Part shown: positions 3,921 to 40,048 of the stretch, piece after piece
Layout of the letters: each line of letters opens with the position of its first letter
Position numbering within the stretch: the first letter of the stretch is position 1
DNA from: Balneola sp.
Lineage (GTDB): Bacteria > Bacteroidota > Rhodothermia > Balneolales > Balneolaceae
Assembly: GCA_965267385.1 (NCBI GenBank)
Contig: OZ253957.1
Span: 65,186 to 129,185 of the forward strand
DNA length: 64,000 bases
Reading direction: 5' to 3'
Program-made: the position numbers and the translations under genes
Notes under the pieces: model-generated
Seen by the model: only the letters and a program-made list of their open reading frames with translations
Database searches by the model: none
What the model was told of the DNA's origin: nothing

Positions 3921-4757
3921 ATGAACAACAAACTATGTGTGATCACAGGAGCAAACTCAGGAATAGGCTTCGAAACCGCTAAGGAGCTGGCTTCCCGCGG
4001 GGCTTATATTGTGATGGTGTGCAGAAATGAAGACAAGGCGGAAGCCGCAAGGAGAAGGATCGAAGAGTCAGCCACAGCCGCCGGCATTGACATTGTTCTT
4101 TGTGATTTTGCCATTCAGTCAGACATCAGAAAAGCCGCGGAAGAAATCAGGTCCCGTTTCGATAAAATTGATGTGCTGATCAATAACCACGGTTTTATTG
4201 CTTCCGGGAGAACCGAGACGGTTGACGGACTGGAATCCACTTTTGCGGTTAACCATATCGGTTATTTTCTGTTTACCAACCTGTTGCTGGATCTTTTGAA
4301 GAATACAGAGAAGGCCAGGGTCATCAACGTGGCTTCGGCCGCACACAGAGGCGGTGTCTTTGATCCTGACAACCTTCAGCTTACTTCCGGTTTTACGCCC
4401 TGGAGAGCATATGCAAATTCCAAGCTGTTCAACATCCTCTTTACAAAGGAACTGGCCGAACGGGTAAAGGACACAGGGATCACCGCTAATTGTTTGCACC
4501 CGGGGGTAGTTCGCTCCAGTTTTGGCAGCCACGGTTCCTTTCTGTTCAGGATTTTATGGGCCGTCGGCAGCCTGTTCATGGTGTCAAATAAAAAGGGAGC
4601 CGAAACATCCATCTACTTGGCAACATCAGATGAAGTGGCGGATGTAAACGGCGCTTACTTTAAAAACAAAAAAGTGGCCGTACCCAAAAAAGCAGCCAGG
4701 AATCCGGAAAATGCGAGGCAATTGTGGGAGATCAGCGAACAGCTTTGCGGCCTGTAA
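3921..4757 (+). CDS. SDR-family oxidoreductase
   Basis: TGANSGIG cofactor motif and the YANSK catalytic YxxxK. Confidence 0.85.
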   Translation: MNNKLCVITGANSGIGFETAKELASRGAYIVMVCRNEDKAEAARRRIEESATAAGIDIVLCDFAIQSDIRKAAEEIRSRFDKIDVLINNHGFIASGRTETVDGLESTFAVNHIGYFLFTNLLLDLLKNTEKARVINVASAAHRGGVFDPDNLQLTSGFTPWRAYANSKLFNILFTKELAERVKDTGITANCLHPGVVRSSFGSHGSFLFRILWAVGSLFMVSNKKGAETSIYLATSDEVADVNGAYFKNKKVAVPKKAARNPENARQLWEISEQLCGL

Positions 4758-4909
4758 TGAAGGATCACGTGGAAGGCACAAAAAGAACCTTTGTTATAAA
4801 GTGGCCATCTTTAAAAGATGCGGTCCTCAAAAGCCGACCTTCAAATGAAAGATTCTGATGCGTGGGATCCCGGGCAAACCAATTCACTCCCGTAGGGAGC
4901 TATGGTCGT

Positions 4910-14914: not shown

Positions 14915-15245
14915 GATAATGGCAAACCTTACCCGCTGGCCAGGCGTTATAACAGAAGCTTCCATGAGCAAGTAGTCTTAGCATCAGCATGGATGGGAAA
15001 GCACGAGGCACCGACAATGCGGCTATTGAACGCTGGTTTTTACCATCAAACGAAAACACGTTTACTTATATCCTGCAAGAAATGGATTGGAGCAGCAACA
15101 GGGAATAGATACATCCATAAAAAATAACCGACAAGACACCAAGGCATTGACCGTAGAAAACCTGGAGACCTGTGCCTCAATGCCGTTTAACCATGAACTA
15201 ACAAACCCATTCCAGTGGTCTAGCAAATAGGGAGTACTTCAAGAT
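14915..15245 (+). pseudogene. IS3-family transposase C-terminal remnant (frameshifted)
   Basis: SMDGKARGTDNAAIERWF, then in another frame TIKRKHVYLYPARNGLEQQQGID..., which is integrase-core C-terminus-like. It ends at ...AAATAGGGAGTACTTCA, a putative terminal repeat. Confidence 0.55.
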
Positions 15246-15294
15246 TGCTGAAATTTTCTCTGCCAGAAAGTAATCAGCCTTCTTACCACAAGGG

Positions 15295-15531
15295 TCAAGA
15301 CAACTTAAGAGGTTCTTGACGGATGTATGTTAACAATTTTGGATAAATATTTTCTTTGCGATAATTAAACCGAAATTCAGACTCTTTTAGATGCAAATAG
15401 AACGTGGACGGGTGCATTCCTCGGCACTTAACCAATCGGGTTTTAGCAAAGCCCCAGAATCCTTCGATGCCATTTATATGACTGGCTGAAGTAACAAATT
15501 CATTGCGACCATGATCGACTCGAAGATGCAA
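15295..15531 (-). pseudogene. IS1595-family (ISXO2-like) transposase C-terminal fragment
   Basis: NGIEGFWGFAKTRL...YLHLKESEFRFNYRKENIY. Only about 78 aa remain. Confidence 0.65.
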
Positions 15532-15672
15532 AGAGTCTATCAGCTAGATGGAAATTCAAGTTCCCTCGAAAAGTACAAAATCAAAGAAGAGGTTGAAGTA
15601 CTAAGAATCTATGGATTACAATCGATAAAACTTATTAGTCCTTTTATCAGAAAATTGGAATTCTAGATTACT

Positions 15673-15963
15673 TTACCTATTCATTTTACTGAGTATTAGG
15701 TCCCAAAACTCAGATGAAATAGATGAAATACGGTATAAAAAATTTGGCCCTACCACCCATCCCATAACCATGCAAAACACAACAGCAAATATTACTATTT
15801 GATTATCCCACCATAAAACAATTGATCCCAAACCGAGTAAAAATAAAATGCTTTGAATTAATACTAATCCTAAAATCATACCGAAAATTGTATTCTGTAC
15901 CTTTTGGAAAAAAGACCTCTCTTTGTCCATCTTATCTTCATTAATCCTTACTTTATTATCCAT
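15673..15963 (-). CDS. small membrane protein (orphan, AT-rich)
   Basis: 96 aa with 2-3 hydrophobic helices, sitting inside the IS debris field. Confidence 0.35.
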   Translation of the reverse strand: MDNKVRINEDKMDKERSFFQKVQNTIFGMILGLVLIQSILFLLGLGSIVLWWDNQIVIFAVVFCMVMGWVVGPNFLYRISSISSEFWDLILSKMNR

Positions 15964-16049
15964 CTTAACTTTGTTTTAATTCAAATCTCAAGTTAGGTCT
16001 ACATTCAATTTATTAAAAATTATATGCTCCAATAAATGGGGAGTACTTC

Positions 16050-16113
16050 ACTTTGCCTCGGGTATATTTATTTTGTGTGGACTGATGACTATGCACACGT
16101 TGTTTCAGATCGG
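16050..16113 (-). pseudogene. internal fragment of a GIY-YIG gene (fourth copy)
   Basis: About 64 bp nearly identical to 19556-19619 of the tandem copies (CTTTGCCTCGGGTATATTT.TTTTGTGTGGACTGATGACTATGCACACGTTGTTTCAGATCGG). It is cut by the IS3 end at 16114. Confidence 0.7.
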
Positions 16114-16963
16114 TGATCCCCTCCCAATTTACTGGCCGGTTAAAAGTAGAGAATTATCGGGGATTGCTTGTTGGTTAAGGTACTCATTCGGGGTGAGATC
16201 TCCGAGTGAGCTATGAGGCCGGAAGGAATTATATTCTTGCCTCTACGCCTCAATTTTTTCTTTCGCATCCAGCAGTGATAAAAACCAATGCAGGTTCAAC
16301 CATTCATCGCGAAAGCTTCCATTAAAAGATTCAACACAGGGGTTATCGGTGGGTTTTCCAGGCCGGGATAAGTCCAGGGTTACCCCATGATCGTACGCCC
16401 AGCGGTCCAGAGCTTTAGAGATAAACTCACTTCGATTGTCTACCTGAATGCGCTCCGTAGTTTGTCCGTAGCGCTGACGCAGTCTTTCCATAATGTAGGT
16501 CACATCTACGCCCTTGAATGCGCAATCTCGATCATCCGTGCTGATAGCAGACGGTCTTCGGGTTTATCGACCGGCTGGTAGGAAAACGTAGAGCGGGCCA
16601 GCACCACCGCCACCGCTGCACGGCGTTGTGCTGGCCTTAAAACTTTTTTTGAACACCTCCTGAAGCACGTGCTTGTCCAGCGATAAATCAGTCACCAGCT
16701 TCTTGAGCTGGCTGTTTTCTTCCTCCAACTGGCGCGGGCGGCGCAGCTCGGAAGTACCTAGCCCTCCGAATTTTTTTCCAATTATACAAAGTAGCCTCGC
16801 TGATGCCCATCTTCCAACAGACTTCTCCAACTGGGTTCCGGTCTCAGTCTGCTTGAGGGCAAAGACCACTTGAGATTCGGCATATATTGTTCGTTAAAGT
16901 TAATGCAGCACTATCGCCCGAATTCTCTACTTTAGATTGGCTCAGTTTTTCGGGAGGAGGTCA
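16114..16963 (-). mobile_element. IS3-family element, internally deleted and frameshifted
   Basis: Terminal inverted repeats are TGATCCCCTCCCAATTTACTGGCC (16114, + strand) and TGACCTCCTCCCGAAAAACTGAGCC (reverse complement, ending 16963). The orfA remnant reads ...LRQLEEENSQLKKLVTDLSLDK with a shift in an A-run. The orfB remnant reads ...DNRSEFISKALDRWAYDHGVTLDLSRPGKPTDNPCVESFNGSFRDE and continues in another frame as ...QEYNSFRPHSSLGDLTPNEYL. Confidence 0.75.
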
Positions 16964-17053
16964 GTGAGTAAGGGTAAAAATAATATTTTCATTTGTTTAA
17001 AAAATTTAATAAATGCTTTAACCAGAAATAATTAACAACTTAATTCTACATCA

Positions 17054-17644
17054 TTGGTTAATTCTGCAAAAAAATATTTGCTGATGGCGATGGTTTTCAT
17101 TCTTTTTTTTGGAACAACATTTACCATTAAGCTTTTCTTCACAGATTCAATAGGTACTAAAGAACTTGCAGAGATTTATGTCCCTGATTACAAATTCGAA
17201 TCCGGCGATGAACTTGTTATGGTATATATAGGCTCCCCTTTTTGTGGATATTGTAATTCTCCAGAAATGCCAGAATTTATTGAAGCTGCTAAACTTAAAG
17301 GGAAAAGTTTAGCAGACAGTTTGGGTATGAATTATGTAGTCTATGGTTTGGCAATTAGTTGGAGTGCGTATGAAGGGATGGATCACTTAAAAAAATTTGG
17401 TCTATTTGACGAGATGATGTTGGGAAGAAGTTGGTCAAATTCAGCAGCAATAAAATATATCCATACTGATATCCCTAGCGGAAGAGTTGGTGCAGTACCC
17501 CAAGTTGTTTATACGACTAGAGAAATTATGTACCAAGAAAATGATACAAAAGACGATTACTTAATATCTAATGAAAAAGAGTATATACGTTTAGAGGGGT
17601 ACGATGAAATAAAAAATTTCGTTCAGATAAACCCAGATCTTTAG
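17054..17644 (+). CDS. membrane-anchored thioredoxin-fold protein with CxxC (TlpA/DsbA-like)
   Basis: N-terminal TM helix, LVMVYIGSPFCGYCNSPE (CGYC), and a later GAVPQVVY resembling a cis-Pro loop. The track start is a TTG; an alternative ATG lies at 17084. Confidence 0.55.
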   Translation: MVNSAKKYLLMAMVFILFFGTTFTIKLFFTDSIGTKELAEIYVPDYKFESGDELVMVYIGSPFCGYCNSPEMPEFIEAAKLKGKSLADSLGMNYVVYGLAISWSAYEGMDHLKKFGLFDEMMLGRSWSNSAAIKYIHTDIPSGRVGAVPQVVYTTREIMYQENDTKDDYLISNEKEYIRLEGYDEIKNFVQINPDL

Positions 17645-17648
17645 ATTT

Positions 17649-18668
17649 ATGATAAAACTACTTAAAACTGCTCCACTAATATTTGTTTTCTTTTCGGCCG
17701 TACATTCTCAGGAAATTGATAATATGTCACGAACATTAGAATCTGTTGAGTTACCTACAGACTTAGAATATTTTATTGGAGGCATCAAAGATTTACGGTT
17801 TTCCGAAAGTGGAATAGTAATAATTGATGAGACTGAGACCAAGGTTATCGCTTTATCTCGCAAAGGTGATAGTATGGGATTAATTGGAAGATCAGGGAGG
17901 GGGCCTGGGGAGTATCTAGATCCATCAGATGTGGAACTAGCAGAGATGAGTATATTCTTGTTAGATAAGTCCGAAAGTAAAATCATTAAGTACAGTTACA
18001 ATAAAGAAACTCAAAAATATGAGTATTTAAGTTCAAAAATTTTTGAGTTCCAGTTAAAAGACATGTGCTTCTCACAAGGTTCAGGATTATTTGTTTTAGG
18101 GGTAAATTCAAATGGATTTATTCATTCTATATCGCAGGAAAATTTTCAAATAATAAGGTCCTTGGGAAAAGAGACAAATGAAGTATCTCCAAATGAAAGG
18201 CTTAAATTTTCAGATGGTAAATTAAGTTGTGATAGAAATTATGTCTATGTGGCACCCAGACTCGACAATGAAATTTTAGCCTTAGATATAAATAATGGAA
18301 AAGTTAATTTTAATGTAAAACTTGAAGAAATAAGTCCCATTGTAACAGTTATTGAAAGACTCGGTGAAAGGAGTAGGCTAGTTAATAAATATTATACGGG
18401 TGAATCCTATAACGAGCTTGGGGATTATCATGACATAGTATTTAATATTGATGTCATTACAGATAACAAAGTTTTAGTCCAGTATATTAGAAAATTTAAG
18501 GATTCCGATACTGAAGATTTAATCACGCTAGTAGTAGATCTCCTTAATAATGAATATAAGGTATTGGAAGATGTGCCTAAATTATTTTCGGGTCCAGGCA
18601 GCAAATTTGCTTCCGATATTTTTATGGATGAGAATCGATTAATTTTCTATGAGCTAAATCAAGAGTAA
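17649..18668 (+). CDS. 6-bladed beta-propeller protein (NHL-like, BF3164/DUF5128-type)
   Basis: Signal peptide and IGRSGRGPGEYLDPSDV, the GxGPGE blade motif of this Bacteroidota family. It starts 4 nt after the upstream gene. Confidence 0.6.
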   Translation: MIKLLKTAPLIFVFFSAVHSQEIDNMSRTLESVELPTDLEYFIGGIKDLRFSESGIVIIDETETKVIALSRKGDSMGLIGRSGRGPGEYLDPSDVELAEMSIFLLDKSESKIIKYSYNKETQKYEYLSSKIFEFQLKDMCFSQGSGLFVLGVNSNGFIHSISQENFQIIRSLGKETNEVSPNERLKFSDGKLSCDRNYVYVAPRLDNEILALDINNGKVNFNVKLEEISPIVTVIERLGERSRLVNKYYTGESYNELGDYHDIVFNIDVITDNKVLVQYIRKFKDSDTEDLITLVVDLLNNEYKVLEDVPKLFSGPGSKFASDIFMDENRLIFYELNQE

Positions 18669-18696
18669 CCTTAACTAAAACTAATAGGTAACATTT

Positions 18697-18966
18697 ATGC
18701 GTCAATTAAAATATCTTAAAAATAAATCTTTACTGGGTATTGCTTTATTTGCCATAATTTTAGGCTTAAATATAACTCCCCAAACCACACATGCCACTAA
18801 TGGAGCTCAATTGGAACGCCAGTTTTTGATGGAATGCGAGGATAAGGGCTGCGATGATGAAGAGCCAAAATGTGTACAAAAGACAGGTTATTATAGCTGC
18901 TTAGCTACTCCGTCCGAAAGTACTTGTTCTGCTTGGACCTGTTCTGGAGATCCTGGTGAGGGTTAG
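18697..18966 (+). CDS. secreted acidic 6-cysteine peptide (about 56 aa mature)
   Basis: Sec-type signal (MRQLKYLKNKSLLGIALFAIILGL...TTHA), then ...ECEDKGCDDEEPKCVQKTGYYSCLATPSESTCSAWTCSG. Last gene before a terminator. Confidence 0.55.
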   Translation: MRQLKYLKNKSLLGIALFAIILGLNITPQTTHATNGAQLERQFLMECEDKGCDDEEPKCVQKTGYYSCLATPSESTCSAWTCSGDPGEG

Positions 18967-18989
18967 TAAGTCACTTTTTCAAAAGGTAA

Positions 18990-19017
18990 AGCTCACAGTT
19001 TATGTGGGCTTTTTTTA
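18990..19017 (+). terminator. rho-independent terminator of the AT-rich cassette
   Basis: GCTCACA-gttta-TGTGGGC (one mismatch) followed by T7. Confidence 0.5.
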
Positions 19018-19059
19018 TGCAACTAATTTTTATTCATTAGTTGTTCTCGATATGTCAGC

Positions 19060-19308
19060 TTACCTGAACTTCGACCAGTCTAAAGTAGATAAAACTTGTA
19101 CTTTTGACCGGTCCAAAAAAACGGGAAGCTGACATTCGGCCTTAGTGTCATAGCGGGCATATCCAAGCAGCACCCAGGGTCCTTTGCCTCGGGTATATTT
19201 GTTTTGTGTGGACTGATGACTTTGCACACGTTGTTTCAGATCGGAAGTATATCCGTAATAATGCCGGCCGCTGGCTTCTGAACGTAGCATATAGACAAAG
19301 TAAGGCAT
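19060..19308 (-). pseudogene. GIY-YIG nuclease family, copy 1 (3'-truncated, C-terminus replaced)
   Basis: The first 57 aa are identical to copy 3 (MPYFVYMLRSEASGRHYYGYTSDLKQRVQSHQ...YDTKAE). Homology ends near 19135 and the ORF continues into unrelated sequence. Confidence 0.65.
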
Positions 19309-19363
19309 AATCCTGAGTGTAAACTAAAAAAGGCATCAACGGATATGTCAATGCCTTTTTCCA

Positions 19364-19438
19364 GTCGGGGCGACAGGATTTGAACCTGCGGCCCTCCCGA
19401 CCGTGGTCGGGATGCCTACCGGACTACGCCGTGCTTGG
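19364..19438 (-). pseudogene. tRNA-Pro-derived relic A
   Basis: The T-arm/3' acceptor matches the real gene except for one extra T, and the D-arm is 15/15. The 5' acceptor strand CCAAGCA cannot pair with CGCCCCG, and the anticodon arm is replaced by a GC hairpin. Confidence 0.7.
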
Positions 19439-19676
19439 AAAGCCAGTTCAGGGCTTTTTGAGGGTTCTTCATGGCCTTAAGTTTGCGTTCAATCCGAAGG
19501 GCCTCGGCCTTGGTATCATAGCGGGCATATCCAAGCAGCACCCAAGGTCCTTTGCCTCGGGTATATTTGTTTTGTGTGGACTGATGACTATGCACACGTT
19601 GTTTCAGATCGGAAGTGTATCCGTAATAATGCCGCCCGCTGGCTTCTGAACGTAGCATATAGACAAAGTAGGGAAT
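19416..19676 (-). pseudogene. GIY-YIG nuclease family, copy 2 (start codon ATG>ATT)
   Basis: Collinear with copy 3, but codon 1 is ATT (19674-19676). The first in-frame Met is residue 7 (track ORF 19416..19658), which removes part of the GIY strand. Confidence 0.6.
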
Positions 19677-19732
19677 AATCCTGAGTGTAAACTAAAAAAG
19701 GCATCAACGGATATGTCAATGCCTTTTTCCAG

Positions 19733-19806
19733 TCGGGGCGACAGGATTTGAACCTGCGGCCCTCCCGACCGTGGTCGGGATGCCTACCGGACTACGCCGT
19801 GCTTGG
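19733..19806 (-). pseudogene. tRNA-Pro-derived relic B
   Basis: 26/26 nt identical to the 3' end of the intact tRNA-Pro and 15/15 in the D-arm. The acceptor stem is unpairable and the anticodon arm is replaced. Confidence 0.7.
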
Positions 19807-20044
19807 AAAGCCAGTTCAGGGCTTTTTGAGGGTTCTTCATGGCCTTAAGTTTGCGTTCAATCCGAAGGGCCTCGGCCTTGGTATCATAGCGGGCATATCC
19901 AAGCAGCACCCAAGGTCCTTTGCCTCGGGTATATTTGTTTTGTGTGGACTGATGACTTTGCACACGTTGTTTCAGATCGGAAGTATATCCGTAATAATGC
20001 CGCCCGCTGGCTTCTGAACGTAGCATATAGACAAAGTAGGGCAT
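19784..20044 (-). CDS. GIY-YIG nuclease family protein (URI domain, 86 aa), copy 3, intact
   Basis: YFVYMLRS...YYGYTSDLKQRVQSH...PWVLLGY...AEALRIERKLK gives the GIY ... YIG ... R ... E pattern. The last 8 codons and the stop lie inside tRNA relic B. Confidence 0.8.
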   Translation of the reverse strand: MPYFVYMLRSEASGRHYYGYTSDLKQRVQSHQSTQNKYTRGKGPWVLLGYARYDTKAEALRIERKLKAMKNPQKALNWLSKHGVVR

Positions 20045-20100
20045 AATCCTGAGTGTAAACTAAAAAAGGCATCAACGGATATGTCAATGCCTTTTTCCAG

Positions 20101-20174
20101 TCGGGGCGACAGGATTTGAACCTGCGACCCCTCGGCCCCCAGCCGAGTGCGCTACCGGACTACGCCACGCCCCG
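20101..20174 (-). tRNA. tRNA-Pro (anticodon GGG)
   Basis: Hand fold: acceptor CGGGGCG/CGCCCCG, anticodon stem CTCGG/CCGAG with loop CTGGGGG, T-loop GGTTCAAATCC. CCA is not encoded. Confidence 0.9.
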
Positions 20175-20316
20175 AATTGACATAAAAGATAGGCAACAAT
20201 CATGGCAAAACTCAAGGTGGATAGCGCTTAATCAGGAATAGATTCCGAAACCAGATTGCTGAATCCCAATGTGTAAAGGGACAGACCAGAAACAAATGAA
20301 CGCAGGGACGTTAACT

Positions 20317-20712
20317 TCACTTTGACTGACAAAGCTCGATCAACACCCCGTTATTGTTTTTGGGATGAATAAAAGCCACCAGCTTATTATCGGCTCCGTC
20401 TTTGGGTTTTTCGTTTAGCACGTGAAACCCTTCTGCTTTCAGGCGATCCATTTCCGCGTAGATATCGAGCACCTCAAAGGCGACATGGTGCAGGCCCTCC
20501 CCGTTACGCTCCACATATTTGGCAATGACGGAATCTGAGCTGGTAGCACCAAGAAGCTCTACTTTGGATTCCCCGGTCTGGAAGAAGGCGGTTTCAACCT
20601 GTTCGCTTTCGACGATCTCCGTTTTATCACAGGGGCGATTGAGAATAGTTTCGTAGGTTTTGATGGCTGATTCCAGATCTTTCACTGCAATGCCAATATG
20701 GTCAATATGCAT
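20317..20712 (-). CDS. mce: methylmalonyl-CoA epimerase
   Basis: MHIDHIGIAV...GEGLHHVAFEV, a VOC fold with the epimerase signature. Confidence 0.8.
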   Translation of the reverse strand: MHIDHIGIAVKDLESAIKTYETILNRPCDKTEIVESEQVETAFFQTGESKVELLGATSSDSVIAKYVERNGEGLHHVAFEVLDIYAEMDRLKAEGFHVLNEKPKDGADNKLVAFIHPKNNNGVLIELCQSK

Positions 20713-20800
20713 ATTGTATTCTGTATATTCAGGATGATATCTTTCAAATATCGAAGAATGTGGTCCTAAAGTCGAAACCTAATTTCAATTTTCACAATTT

Positions 20801-21682
20801 ATGGTAAGCCCGATGAAAAAAACATCCCTGTACCTGATCCTGTTCACCCTGTTCATTTCCTGTTCCGCTGAAAAAGAGAGCAAGGAAGAGCTGGTTTCTA
20901 TTGAGACCCCTTACGGTGAGATGGTTGTACTTCTGTATGATGAAACCCCTCTTCATAAGGAGAACTTTCTCAGGCTTGCCAAACAGGGATTCTACGACGG
21001 AACCACCTTTCACAGGGTTATTGACGATTTTATGATCCAGGGAGGGGATCCCTTTTCCAGAGACAGCCTTGACTTCAACGACGGGACCGGGGGCCCCGGT
21101 TACACTATTGAGTCGGAATTTAACAGAAACCTGATTCACAAGCGGGGAGCGATAGCAGCAGCCAGAATGCCGGATGCACAAAATCCGGAATTAGCCTCAA
21201 ACGGGTCTCAGTTTTTTATTGTGGACGGACGAAAGATAACCGGAGCCGAAATCGTCAATTTTGAGCACGAAGTTAATCAGAACCTCGAGAACAGGATCAT
21301 GAGAGAGTATGTGTATCGGCCTGAAAACGCGCATTATCTGGACGCGCTCAGAAGAAATCAACAAGCCAACAATCCGGACAGCATTACCATTATCACGGAA
21401 CAGGTCCGAAAAGAGGCGCTCGTTGGGTACGAACCTTTTCAGTATACCGATGAGCAGATCTCCATTTACGAAGAACTCGGCGGATCCCCCTTTCTGGACC
21501 AGAACTATACGGTTTTTGGTGAAGTGATCTCAGGACTGGCCGTACTGGATTCCATCACGGCACAGGAAACCGATCAGCGCGACCGGCCTCTCCGTAATAT
21601 TCCGATGGAAGTCCGGGTATTTGAAATGTCCCGCGATAGTATAGCGGAGGAATATGGCTTTAGCCTGGATGACAATGAATGA
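20801..21682 (+). CDS. cyclophilin-type peptidyl-prolyl isomerase (lipoprotein, with insertion)
   Basis: FHRVIDDFMIQGGDP, GSQFFI and a LFISCS lipobox. Confidence 0.85.
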   Translation: MVSPMKKTSLYLILFTLFISCSAEKESKEELVSIETPYGEMVVLLYDETPLHKENFLRLAKQGFYDGTTFHRVIDDFMIQGGDPFSRDSLDFNDGTGGPGYTIESEFNRNLIHKRGAIAAARMPDAQNPELASNGSQFFIVDGRKITGAEIVNFEHEVNQNLENRIMREYVYRPENAHYLDALRRNQQANNPDSITIITEQVRKEALVGYEPFQYTDEQISIYEELGGSPFLDQNYTVFGEVISGLAVLDSITAQETDQRDRPLRNIPMEVRVFEMSRDSIAEEYGFSLDDNE

Positions 21683-39763: not shown

Positions 39764-39964
39764 AAGTAACAGATCGGAATAAACAAAAAAACCTGTTCCT
39801 CAAAAGAAACAGGCTTTAGAGATATGTGCTCATGAATGGAGTTCCCGATTCGCTCCCTCATTTCCCTCTGCCGAAGGATCGGCATCGGCGGGACAGGCTT
39901 CTCCTCCGGTATGTAGTGCATAAAAAAACCAGCCTTTGCAATGCAAAAGCTGGTTACATTAATG

Positions 39965-40048
39965 TGCTCACGAATGGAGTCGAACCATCACGGCCGTTAG
40001 GCCACACGCCCCTCAAGCGTGCGCGTCTACCAATTCCGCCACGTGAGC
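39965..40048 (-). tRNA. tRNA-Leu (anticodon GAG), long variable arm
   Basis: Hand fold: acceptor GCTCACG/CGTGAGC, anticodon stem CACGC/GCGTG with loop TTGAGGG, variable arm GGCC-TAAC-GGCC, T-loop GGTTCGACTCC. Confidence 0.9.

Follow-up and report, generated by a model that had tools for sequence, protein, structure and literature searches.

Tandem GIY-YIG genes joined to hairpin-bearing pseudo-tRNAs beside tRNA-Pro(GGG) in Balneola: a probable selfish cassette of bacterial tRNA genes

The DNA analysed here, 64,000 nucleotides of a Balneola sp. genome (contig OZ253957.1, positions 65,186 to 129,185; hereafter the window), carries next to an intact tRNA-Pro(GGG) gene a short tandem array whose units join a gene for a small GIY-YIG protein to an altered partial copy of that tRNA. 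The region is probably, at roughly 60%, a locally amplified copy of a selfish nuclease cassette that has long resided at tRNA genes and recombines through the arms of its pseudo-tRNA. An earlier note on this DNA (the original prediction) had proposed a selfish nuclease element associated with a tRNA gene. This proposal remains the best fit and holds across phyla; we infer the nuclease activity, its target and the mobility of the cassette from sequence features.

Over positions 19136-20130, Tandem Repeats Finder detects 2.7 copies of a 368-nt period, matching at 98% without indels, and a repeat search finds three in-register copies at 368-nt spacing together with a 63-nt fragment of a fourth. 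Read on the minus strand, each unit opens with a terminator hairpin and its T-run, continues with an 86-aa GIY-YIG open reading frame (ORF) and closes with a segment derived from tRNA-Pro (coordinates in Table 1). Three head-to-tail modules of 368/369 bp had been described originally; the tandem arrangement stands, and both full units measure 368 nt. The fourth fragment is likewise present, at 63 nt and not 64 bp. The intact tRNA was confirmed by ARAGORN and Rfam, and the hairpin terminator behind it by inverted repeats and RNAfold, which gives a stem of 13-14 bp with nine G-C-rich core pairs and A-U pairs reaching into the T-run. The same terminator follows tRNA-Pro in the closest congener (locus L058; loci from other genomes and metagenomes carry L numbers). 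The GIY-YIG gene is the sole intact sense-strand ORF of the 368-bp unit, and no site-specific recombinase is encoded. With regard to insertion sequences (IS) and miniature inverted-repeat transposable elements, the unit has no terminal inverted repeats at its bounds and no transposase inside; its repeats are direct and tRNA-derived.

The copies are in the states first described for them: copy 3 is intact, copy 2 has lost its start codon (ATG>ATT), and copy 1 loses homology at about 19135. The TAG stop of copy 3 (19784-19786) lies inside the D-loop of the pseudo-tRNA. An 80-aa frame from an internal ATG (19416-19658) is what remains of copy 2, which is probably inactive since this product would lack the first Tyr motif (Y6). 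Between modules 3 and 2 there are three differences in 368 nt (20042 G>T, the start-codon change; 19985; and 19958, which gives Q29H), and the copies are thus real, distinct sequences. The chance that the array is an artefact of expansion or collapse during assembly is negligible. A related metagenome contig (L059) does break at the exact tRNA 3′ end and another locus (L016) has a gap after the repeat, signs that the locus is difficult to assemble, but here the copies carry private substitutions and one is truncated, the proteins of the window genome are recorded on a 2.99-Mb contig, and comparable arrays occur in independent assemblies.

The tRNA-derived segment retains two blocks of the intact gene, and alignment bears out the figures first given for both: the D-arm (GGCGTAGTCCGGTAG) is identical at 15/15 nt and the T-arm with the 3′ acceptor strand (GCAGG...CCCCGAC) at 26/26. 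The relic D-arm carries a 1-nt deletion (GTAGCGCA > GTAG-GCA), the 5′ acceptor strand is missing, and the anticodon arm is replaced by a perfect hairpin with a tetraloop, TCCCGAC-CACG-GTCGGGA. The direct repeat of the tRNA 3′ segment comprises the 26 exact nt plus the terminator. The last eight codons and stop of the ORF (LSKHGVVR*) had been attributed to the tRNA-like segment. This claim has to be narrowed, as merely the last four codons and the stop (GGC GTA GTC CGG TAG, that is, GVVR*) are tRNA-derived, and LSKH stands in the place of the acceptor strand without homology to it. By the Rfam covariance model the relics do not qualify as tRNA genes (no RF00005 match at E ≤ 1), and a permissive Rfam scan of positions 15000-21000 returned the real tRNA alone, with no RNA family over relic or hairpin. 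The 'tRNA-???' calls that ARAGORN makes on the relics depend on a shifted fold. Elsewhere in the window the hairpin motif has 3 matches against 1.6 expected by chance, and it is no dispersed repeat here.

The protein was identified by a profile search. PF01541 matches residues 3-73 with 55.9 bits (cut-off 22.6; E = 5.5e-15), which upholds the assignment to the GIY-YIG family made at the outset. Structures in the PDB are matched at E = 3.4e-10 (1zg2, BH0048) and E = 2e-5 (1ywl, EF2693), a SLX1 homologue merely at E = 0.81, and identity to Escherichia coli YhbQ is about 38%. It is a predicted single-domain GIY-YIG nuclease of the UPF0213/YhbQ/Slx1-like branch; YhbQ and YazA have been placed in the Slx1 family (PMC7017083). 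The chain ends 13 residues past the domain and lacks the C-terminal zinc finger of eukaryotic Slx1, and 1zg2 and 1ywl are likewise short single-domain chains. The C-terminal DNA-binding domain of Seg/I-Tev proteins is absent too; the 86 aa comprise the catalytic domain alone, and the protein is therefore not a Seg/I-Tev-type homing enzyme. All 19 homologues compared, which come from several phyla, have Y6, Y17, G19, R27, H31 and E63, and the motif YTRGKGPW marks the clade. Orthologues within Balneolaceae have a dN of about 0.3; most pairs are saturated in dS, and omega, computable for seven pairs alone, is 0.12-0.27. Together with the invariant catalytic residues, this suggests that the ORF has been maintained as a working enzyme.

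An exhaustive HMMER search returned 3,397 clusters (50% identity) at E ≤ 1e-3 and 104 at E ≤ 1e-10. No close homologue was found in phage records: PHROG gives a single weak match (E = 0.0074), and phage and plasmid collections yield distant YhbQ-like matches at most. PADLOC has no match and NCBIfam no model. A few of the retrieved proteins contain two GIY-YIG stretches each; two of them (P0130 and P0132, 205-214 aa) may be read-through fusions of tandem cassette copies.

Relatives of the ORF are linked to tRNA genes well beyond Balneola. The sample comprised 23 genome loci and 33 metagenome loci (56 loci, 190 kb); it was retrieved by the YTRGKGPW motif and so represents one clade, not all small GIY-YIG proteins. 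With linkage defined as a same-strand tRNA at most 250 nt from the ORF, 43/56 loci qualify, all at distances of 182 nt or less, and the remainder of the 190 kb holds only seven other tRNAs. The predicted association of small GIY-YIG genes with tRNA genes in relatives is thereby borne out. The linked tRNAs span ten anticodons of nine isotypes (Pro(GGG), Pro(CGG), His, Lys, Asp, Asn, Val, Ala, Arg and Met) in at least six phyla, the genome loci coming from Balneolaceae, Bacteroidales, Chitinophagaceae, Flavobacteriales, Mariniphaga, Melioribacter, Desulfobacteraceae, Aminicenantes, Dojkabacteria and Hydrothermia. Of the 13 unlinked loci, six either have tRNA fragments beside the ORF or stop at a contig end, and the unambiguous exceptions encode distant homologues of at most 41% identity. 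E. coli yhbQ, located between yhbP and yhbS, has no adjoining tRNA, so that linkage defines the YTRGKGPW clade and not the whole family. At one locus (L031, ~1250-1900) the cassette lies beside tRNA-Ala(TGC) just downstream of tRNA-Ile(GAT), as in an rRNA operon spacer, and a partial tRNA-Ala-like copy is found upstream too.

Two mirror architectures recur among these loci. In the common type A, an intact tRNA is followed by a terminator, the ORF and a pseudo-copy of that tRNA, in which the ORF end takes the place of the 5′ acceptor strand and a hairpin that of the anticodon arm. TAG is the stop codon of 21/23 genome ORFs, and at most type A loci it lies in the pseudo-tRNA, either within the D-loop or at positions 8-10. 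In type B, a pseudo-tRNA made of 5′ acceptor strand, D-arm and hairpin precedes the ORF, and the intact tRNA comes last (L015, L021, L022, L034, L043, L044, L049); the tRNAs involved include Asp in Chitinophagaceae, Pro in L044 and Met in L049. Past the ORF, on the side away from the intact tRNA, 26 of the 43 loci match that tRNA exactly over 15 nt or more and several others over 8-14 nt; four of the 43 are only partly evaluable since little or no sequence is available past the ORF (three with just its last 40 nt).

The relics keep pace with their tRNAs. Four tRNA-Pro haplotypes, differing in T-stem and acceptor, occur in Balneolaceae, and each is matched base for base by the relic of its own genome, which confirms that the tRNA-like segments derive from tRNA-Pro. 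The C-terminal peptide follows the local D-loop as well (GVVR* in the window, GSVR* in Gracilimonas). Such tracking amounts to concerted evolution through gene conversion or repeated recombination with the tRNA. Tandem arrays, in which a new ORF follows relic and terminator, were found in five independent assemblies (L014, L026, L028, L029, L037) and also at L016, where the assembly gap follows the repeat; ORF-less units occur at L009, L030 and L038. At the single-copy type A loci L001, L004, L007 and L025 the duplication stops exactly at the tRNA 3′ end. Across genera these loci share the terminator that precedes the ORF but not the local one behind the relic, a pattern that a cassette-borne first terminator would produce. 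In several Balneolaceae a second full-length pseudo-tRNA with the same hairpin lies upstream of tRNA-Pro (L001-L003, L005, L007 (~2750-2830), L035 and L004), with no ORF between; its T-arm or acceptor is decayed in most cases, and its hairpin and loop (AGGCGT/AGGTGT) are nearly identical across genomes.

In 17 representative hairpins from cassettes at eight tRNA isotypes, the six outer positions form Watson-Crick pairs in 102 of 102 cases, with 24 compensatory double changes and no one-sided change. The hairpin is rich in G+C; its stem nearly always starts with UCC and ends with GGA, loops range from 3 to 16 nt, and G-U pairs number 4 of ~340. Within Balneolaceae the stem TCCCGAC/GTCGGGA has been kept despite saturated synonymous sites. 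A stem so fully paired and covarying is a feature of the cassette and not a product of decay. The initial description of a decayed tRNA copy does not hold for the anticodon arm. ORF and hairpin, judged by these substitution patterns, are under purifying selection. The scarcity of G-U pairs and the variable loops fit selection as a DNA hairpin or cruciform, or on both strands; an RNA role may also be possible. Cassettes at different tRNAs have the hairpin of their ORF lineage (TCCCGAC with Pro and Val, TTCCGAC with Lys), so the pseudo-tRNA module belongs to the cassette instead of forming anew at every site.

In L002, L025, L028 and L009/L010 the T-loop of the pseudo-tRNA has likewise given way to a hairpin, identical in stem sequence to the first, and the hairpin seems copyable into other arm positions. 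In L019 one hairpin stands before and one after a T-loop remnant. The arms TCCCGAC and GTCGGGA correspond, with flanking bases, to the 3′ and 5′ acceptor strands of the Gracilimonas-type tRNA-Pro (L001, L004). This hints at a start as a tRNA-to-tRNA junction, and at most at an origin at tRNA-Pro. Derivation from the local acceptor stem was rejected as a general rule: the window tRNA has CGCCCCG as its acceptor, and TCCCGAC-like hairpins persist in cassettes whose tRNA is Val (L035) or Lys (L012).

It is improbable that the hairpin pseudo-tRNA is the functional partner of the nuclease, whether as an RNA handle or guide, as an RNA resembling a type III antitoxin, or as a DNA hairpin or cruciform substrate, and thereby lends specificity or control to a catalytic domain without a binding domain. 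Conservation of the stem sequence across genera despite saturated synonymous sites, its perfect covariation across phyla, and its standing as the best-kept part of the decayed upstream pseudo-tRNAs would all suit such a partner. The arrangement has parallels as well. In TnpB and IscB systems a structured element, the omega-RNA, overlaps or abuts the end of the nuclease gene, as the hairpin does here, and type III toxin-antitoxin loci, whose RNA units can be tandemly iterated, place a terminator between RNA unit and nuclease gene. Yet the low number of G-U pairs is a better fit to a DNA palindrome than to an RNA stem, PADLOC gives no match, the unpaired 3′ acceptor strand offers a potential guide of 7-8 nt at most, and the hairpin has no fixed position, being downstream of the ORF in type A and upstream in type B. 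A related proposal, also doubtful, is that tRNA-gene specificity comes from the hairpin-bearing tRNA mimic at the ORF 3′ end, which might partner or guide the enzyme as a tRNA-shaped RNA or, as a cloverleaf or cruciform of DNA, be cut by it. If so, the cassette would carry everything needed for homing, homology arms included, and could settle at any tRNA gene by way of the D-loop and T-loop boxes, which are universally conserved; this would amount to a new mobility principle.

The history of the locus could be followed within Balneolaceae, where mce, encoding methylmalonyl-CoA epimerase, lies upstream of tRNA-Pro. The cassette is present behind this pair in the window, L003, L005, L026 and L033, and tRNA-Pro stands without it at the same locus in L065, L071/L072 (Balneola vulgaris type) and L073. 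In the closest congener (L058, ~87% nucleotide identity) a single frameshifted, 3′-truncated copy without a relic runs straight into a homologue of window positions 14707-12094, as seen by blastn against the window. The locus is thus polymorphic, as had been expected, and not invariant and single-copy: it is empty in the B. vulgaris type, degenerate in L058 and occupied by 2.7 copies in the window. L058 has the same truncation, and copy 1 is therefore the ancestral copy that terminates the array. Identity among copies 1-3 is 97-99%, against 87-91% to L058, which points to recent duplication or homogenisation, and the 63-nt fragment is 95% identical to the L058 copy. The two full units were either lost from L058 by recombination between repeats or regained in the lineage of the window.

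Attachment-site duplications of the attL/attR type, left by an integrase island or prophage at tRNA-Pro with the GIY-YIG gene as leftover cargo, are a very improbable source of the array. tRNA-Pro(GGG) is a general integration hot spot in the family: L067 has an island of integrase type with DUF5906 at this gene, and in L066 a tRNA-Pro of a different allele is interrupted in the T-arm. The exact stop of the repeat at the tRNA 3′ end in the four single-copy loci named above is also what an attachment site would leave. However, the unit is just 368 bp and contains no integrase, the D-arm is kept besides the 3′ end, and a conserved hairpin is present. The same tiny architecture recurs at ten anticodons across many phyla, and in its mirror form the duplicated portion of the tRNA is the 5′ one. 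Integrase-bearing elements with the cassette as their att-proximal end are absent across the 56 loci. L065, L066 and L067 (~4200-4800) encode an identical epimerase protein, yet the sequence after tRNA-Pro(GGG) differs among them.

The ~4.4-kb block that separates copy 1 from the sequence shared with L058 looks like a later composite insertion into the end of the array. It contains an IS3-family integrase-core remnant (16243-16503), an IS1595-like fragment (15295-15531) and IS-end-like repeats (TGAAGTACTCCC, at 16039-16050 and again at 15230-15241), as well as the fragment of the fourth GIY-YIG copy; Pfam detects rve and DDE fragments at 15295-16869, which are IS remnants outside the 368-bp unit. 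Three plus-strand ORFs occupy 17054-18966, one of them coding for a DUF5128 six-bladed beta-propeller. Each array unit also holds an antisense 89-aa ORF without a family match (19380-19649 and 19748-20017, plus strand), which is probably spurious and recurs merely through repetition of the unit. The only other tRNA gene of the window, tRNA-Leu(GAG) at 39964-40048, has no adjoining cassette.

Table 1. Features of the tRNA-Pro array and its surroundings (window coordinates)
Feature	Positions	Strand	Basis
mce, methylmalonyl-CoA epimerase, upstream synteny marker	20317-20712	-	Pfam Glyoxalase_4; source names; synteny in L003, L005, L026, L033
Intact tRNA-Pro(GGG), anchor gene	20100-20174	-	ARAGORN; Rfam RF00005, 61.8 bits
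Intrinsic terminator hairpin + T-run, opens module 3 after the tRNA	20063-20096	-	inverted-repeat families I1-I3
Terminator, identical copies	19695-19728 and 19327-19360	-	inverted repeats
GIY-YIG ORF copy 3, intact, 86 aa	19784-20044	-	ORF call; PF01541
Pseudo-tRNA-Pro B: D-arm 19784-19798, hairpin 19763-19780, T-arm + 3′ acceptor 19732-19757	19732-19798	-	
GIY-YIG ORF copy 2, start ATG>ATT at 19674-19676, Q29H	19416-19676	-	sequence comparison
Pseudo-tRNA-Pro A, identical to B, hairpin 19395-19412	19364-19430	-	sequence comparison
GIY-YIG ORF copy 1, 3′-truncated, start at 19308	19120-19308	-	homology lost at ~19135; truncation also in L058
~4.4-kb block absent from L058	14708-19119	.	blastn; Pfam; sequence reading
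Fourth GIY-YIG copy, 63-nt internal fragment between IS ends	16051-16113	-	repeat search

In the favoured explanation, the selfish cassette, the tRNA-derived arms would serve as portable homology by which the cassette recombines with a tRNA gene. Crossing-over 3′ of the hairpin would yield type A (tRNA-terminator-ORF-pseudo-tRNA) and crossing-over 5′ of it type B (pseudo-tRNA-ORF-tRNA), the viable products being those that leave the tRNA intact. Gene conversion would afterwards keep the arms matched to the tRNA. By analogy with SegB, a phage endonuclease discussed below that acts at tRNA T-loop DNA, the nuclease would probably make the initiating break. The hairpin might mark, disarm or protect the pseudo-copy, or be the structure recognised by the Slx1-like enzyme; Slx1-type enzymes are known to act on hairpin- and cruciform-type structures. 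A duplication junction between the ORF 3′ end and the D-arm could by itself give an ORF joined to a tRNA copy without its 5′ acceptor strand. Ends-in gap repair from a circle cut at the hairpin was considered and rejected, as repair would restore the real anticodon arm in the relic.

The array in the window would have arisen by recent unequal crossing-over between repeats of about 100 bp that extend from the variable/T-arm region through the terminator to the ORF start. Such exchange would account for the recurrent tandem iteration, and the difference of 3/368 nt between the full copies indicates that the 2.7 copies are recent. Later IS insertions would have broken the far end of the array. 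A consensus scan called no minus-strand promoter for the ORF. Its position right after the tRNA terminator without a detectable promoter suggests low-level expression through read-through of a strong tRNA transcript. In the terminator loop (20063-20096 and its copies; also L001, L003 and L025) a TTGACA-like hexamer precedes a T-rich TTTAGT/TTTTAT by about 17 nt; a promoter TTGACA-17-TTTAGT was suspected there and dropped in view of the negative scan.

Several observations weigh against this explanation. Identity between cassettes at different tRNAs is at best 63% and the proteins cluster by tRNA and taxon, so that target switching must be rare or ancient and inheritance looks mostly vertical; a search among cassettes at different tRNAs found no recent switch. 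A bare catalytic domain of 86 aa would not be expected to perform site-specific homing of the Seg/I-Tev type, and if the tRNA gene is the target, the intact tRNA at an occupied locus stays cleavable. The motif-retrieved sample stands for one clade only, with E. coli yhbQ away from any tRNA, and no circular or excised form of the cassette was seen.

An alternative is a domesticated host gene of tRNA operons, active for example in RNA processing or in repair of transcription-replication damage where tRNA genes are highly expressed. The pseudo-tRNA with its hairpin would then act in cis alone, for example by stabilising the mRNA 3′ end or as a signal for processing, and the arrays would be incidental products of recombination between repeats. 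Long purifying selection on the ORF, its constant position across Balneolaceae genera, the stable bond of cassette lineages to one tRNA per taxon and the suggested expression by read-through all agree with a host function, and prokaryotic fusions of Slx1-like domains to TrmH have been read as a hint of RNA metabolism (PMC1564403). Such a role is nevertheless unlikely. Close syntenic relatives have no gene or a pseudogene only, the gene is found at ten anticodons (nine isotypes) in two mirror architectures, and units that are truncated or have no ORF are common. The T-arm of the pseudo-tRNA is itself replaced by a hairpin in L002, L025 and L028, which argues against selection for a tRNA-shaped RNA.

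If the selfish-cassette explanation is correct, proteins of the YhbQ/Slx1 type, annotated in thousands of genomes and without an established function in the cassette clade, also serve as selfish cassettes resident at tRNA genes in Bacteroidota-related and other phyla. The cassette would account for many 'tRNA-???' or pseudo-tRNA calls and assembly breaks beside tRNA genes. It would flag tRNA loci prone to copy-number change and might serve as a minimal homology-armed integration module. The hairpin in the place of the anticodon arm poses the puzzle of how a bare catalytic domain finds or spares tRNA-like DNA or RNA. Selfish GIY-YIG genes and residents of tRNA genes are known kinds; searches of Rfam and of the full-text literature (subscription-only papers excluded) found no description of GIY-YIG genes joined to bacterial pseudo-tRNAs.

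Among known families, YhbQ/YazA/UPF0213 proteins are related in sequence and share the single domain (86 aa in the cassette, ~96-107 aa in these families). They differ in that E. coli yhbQ has no tRNA nearby and YTRGKGPW marks the cassette clade; to our knowledge, no repeats, pseudo-tRNAs or copy-number variation are associated with that family. Integrase islands and prophages likewise land at tRNA genes, keep the tRNA intact and leave a direct 3′ repeat ending at the tRNA 3′ end, and islands in relatives use the same tRNA-Pro. In contrast to these, the cassette has no tyrosine or serine recombinase, a unit of 368 bp, a duplicated D-arm, a hairpin and a mirror form that duplicates the 5′ part. 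TnpB/IscB and type III toxin-antitoxin systems are analogies only: a structured non-coding element also lies at the end of a small nuclease gene, but the proteins are non-homologous and the cassette stems, with few G-U pairs, look like DNA palindromes.

The closest known analogue is SegB, a phage GIY-YIG protein of about 220 aa. The original prediction knew of no described mechanism for such an element; SegB provides a described analogue, while the bacterial cassette itself is undescribed in the literature found. [quoted passage not shown] The cassette resembles it in the placement of a GIY-YIG gene among tRNA genes (phages T4/T6) and in amplification. The geometry of the T6 amplification (PMC13096335) would give an ORF fused to a 5′-truncated tRNA copy, as in the cassette, and segB homologues in phages are enriched near tRNA genes of many isotypes. 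The cassette also shows the presence/absence polymorphism at an orthologous locus, mce-tRNA-Pro, that is characteristic of Seg/I-Tev elements. On the other hand, SegB belongs to another GIY-YIG subfamily and has a DNA-binding domain, whereas the cassette protein is a YhbQ/Slx1-type catalytic domain alone. SegB is a phage gene, and the cassette is chromosomal without close homologues in phage records. A conserved, hairpin-substituted pseudo-tRNA is not mentioned for SegB in the accessible text of either paper (PMC2330249, PMC13096335). The cassette would thus extend the SegB principle, in which a GIY-YIG enzyme and tRNA-gene homology together lead to segmental amplification, from phages to bacterial chromosomes.

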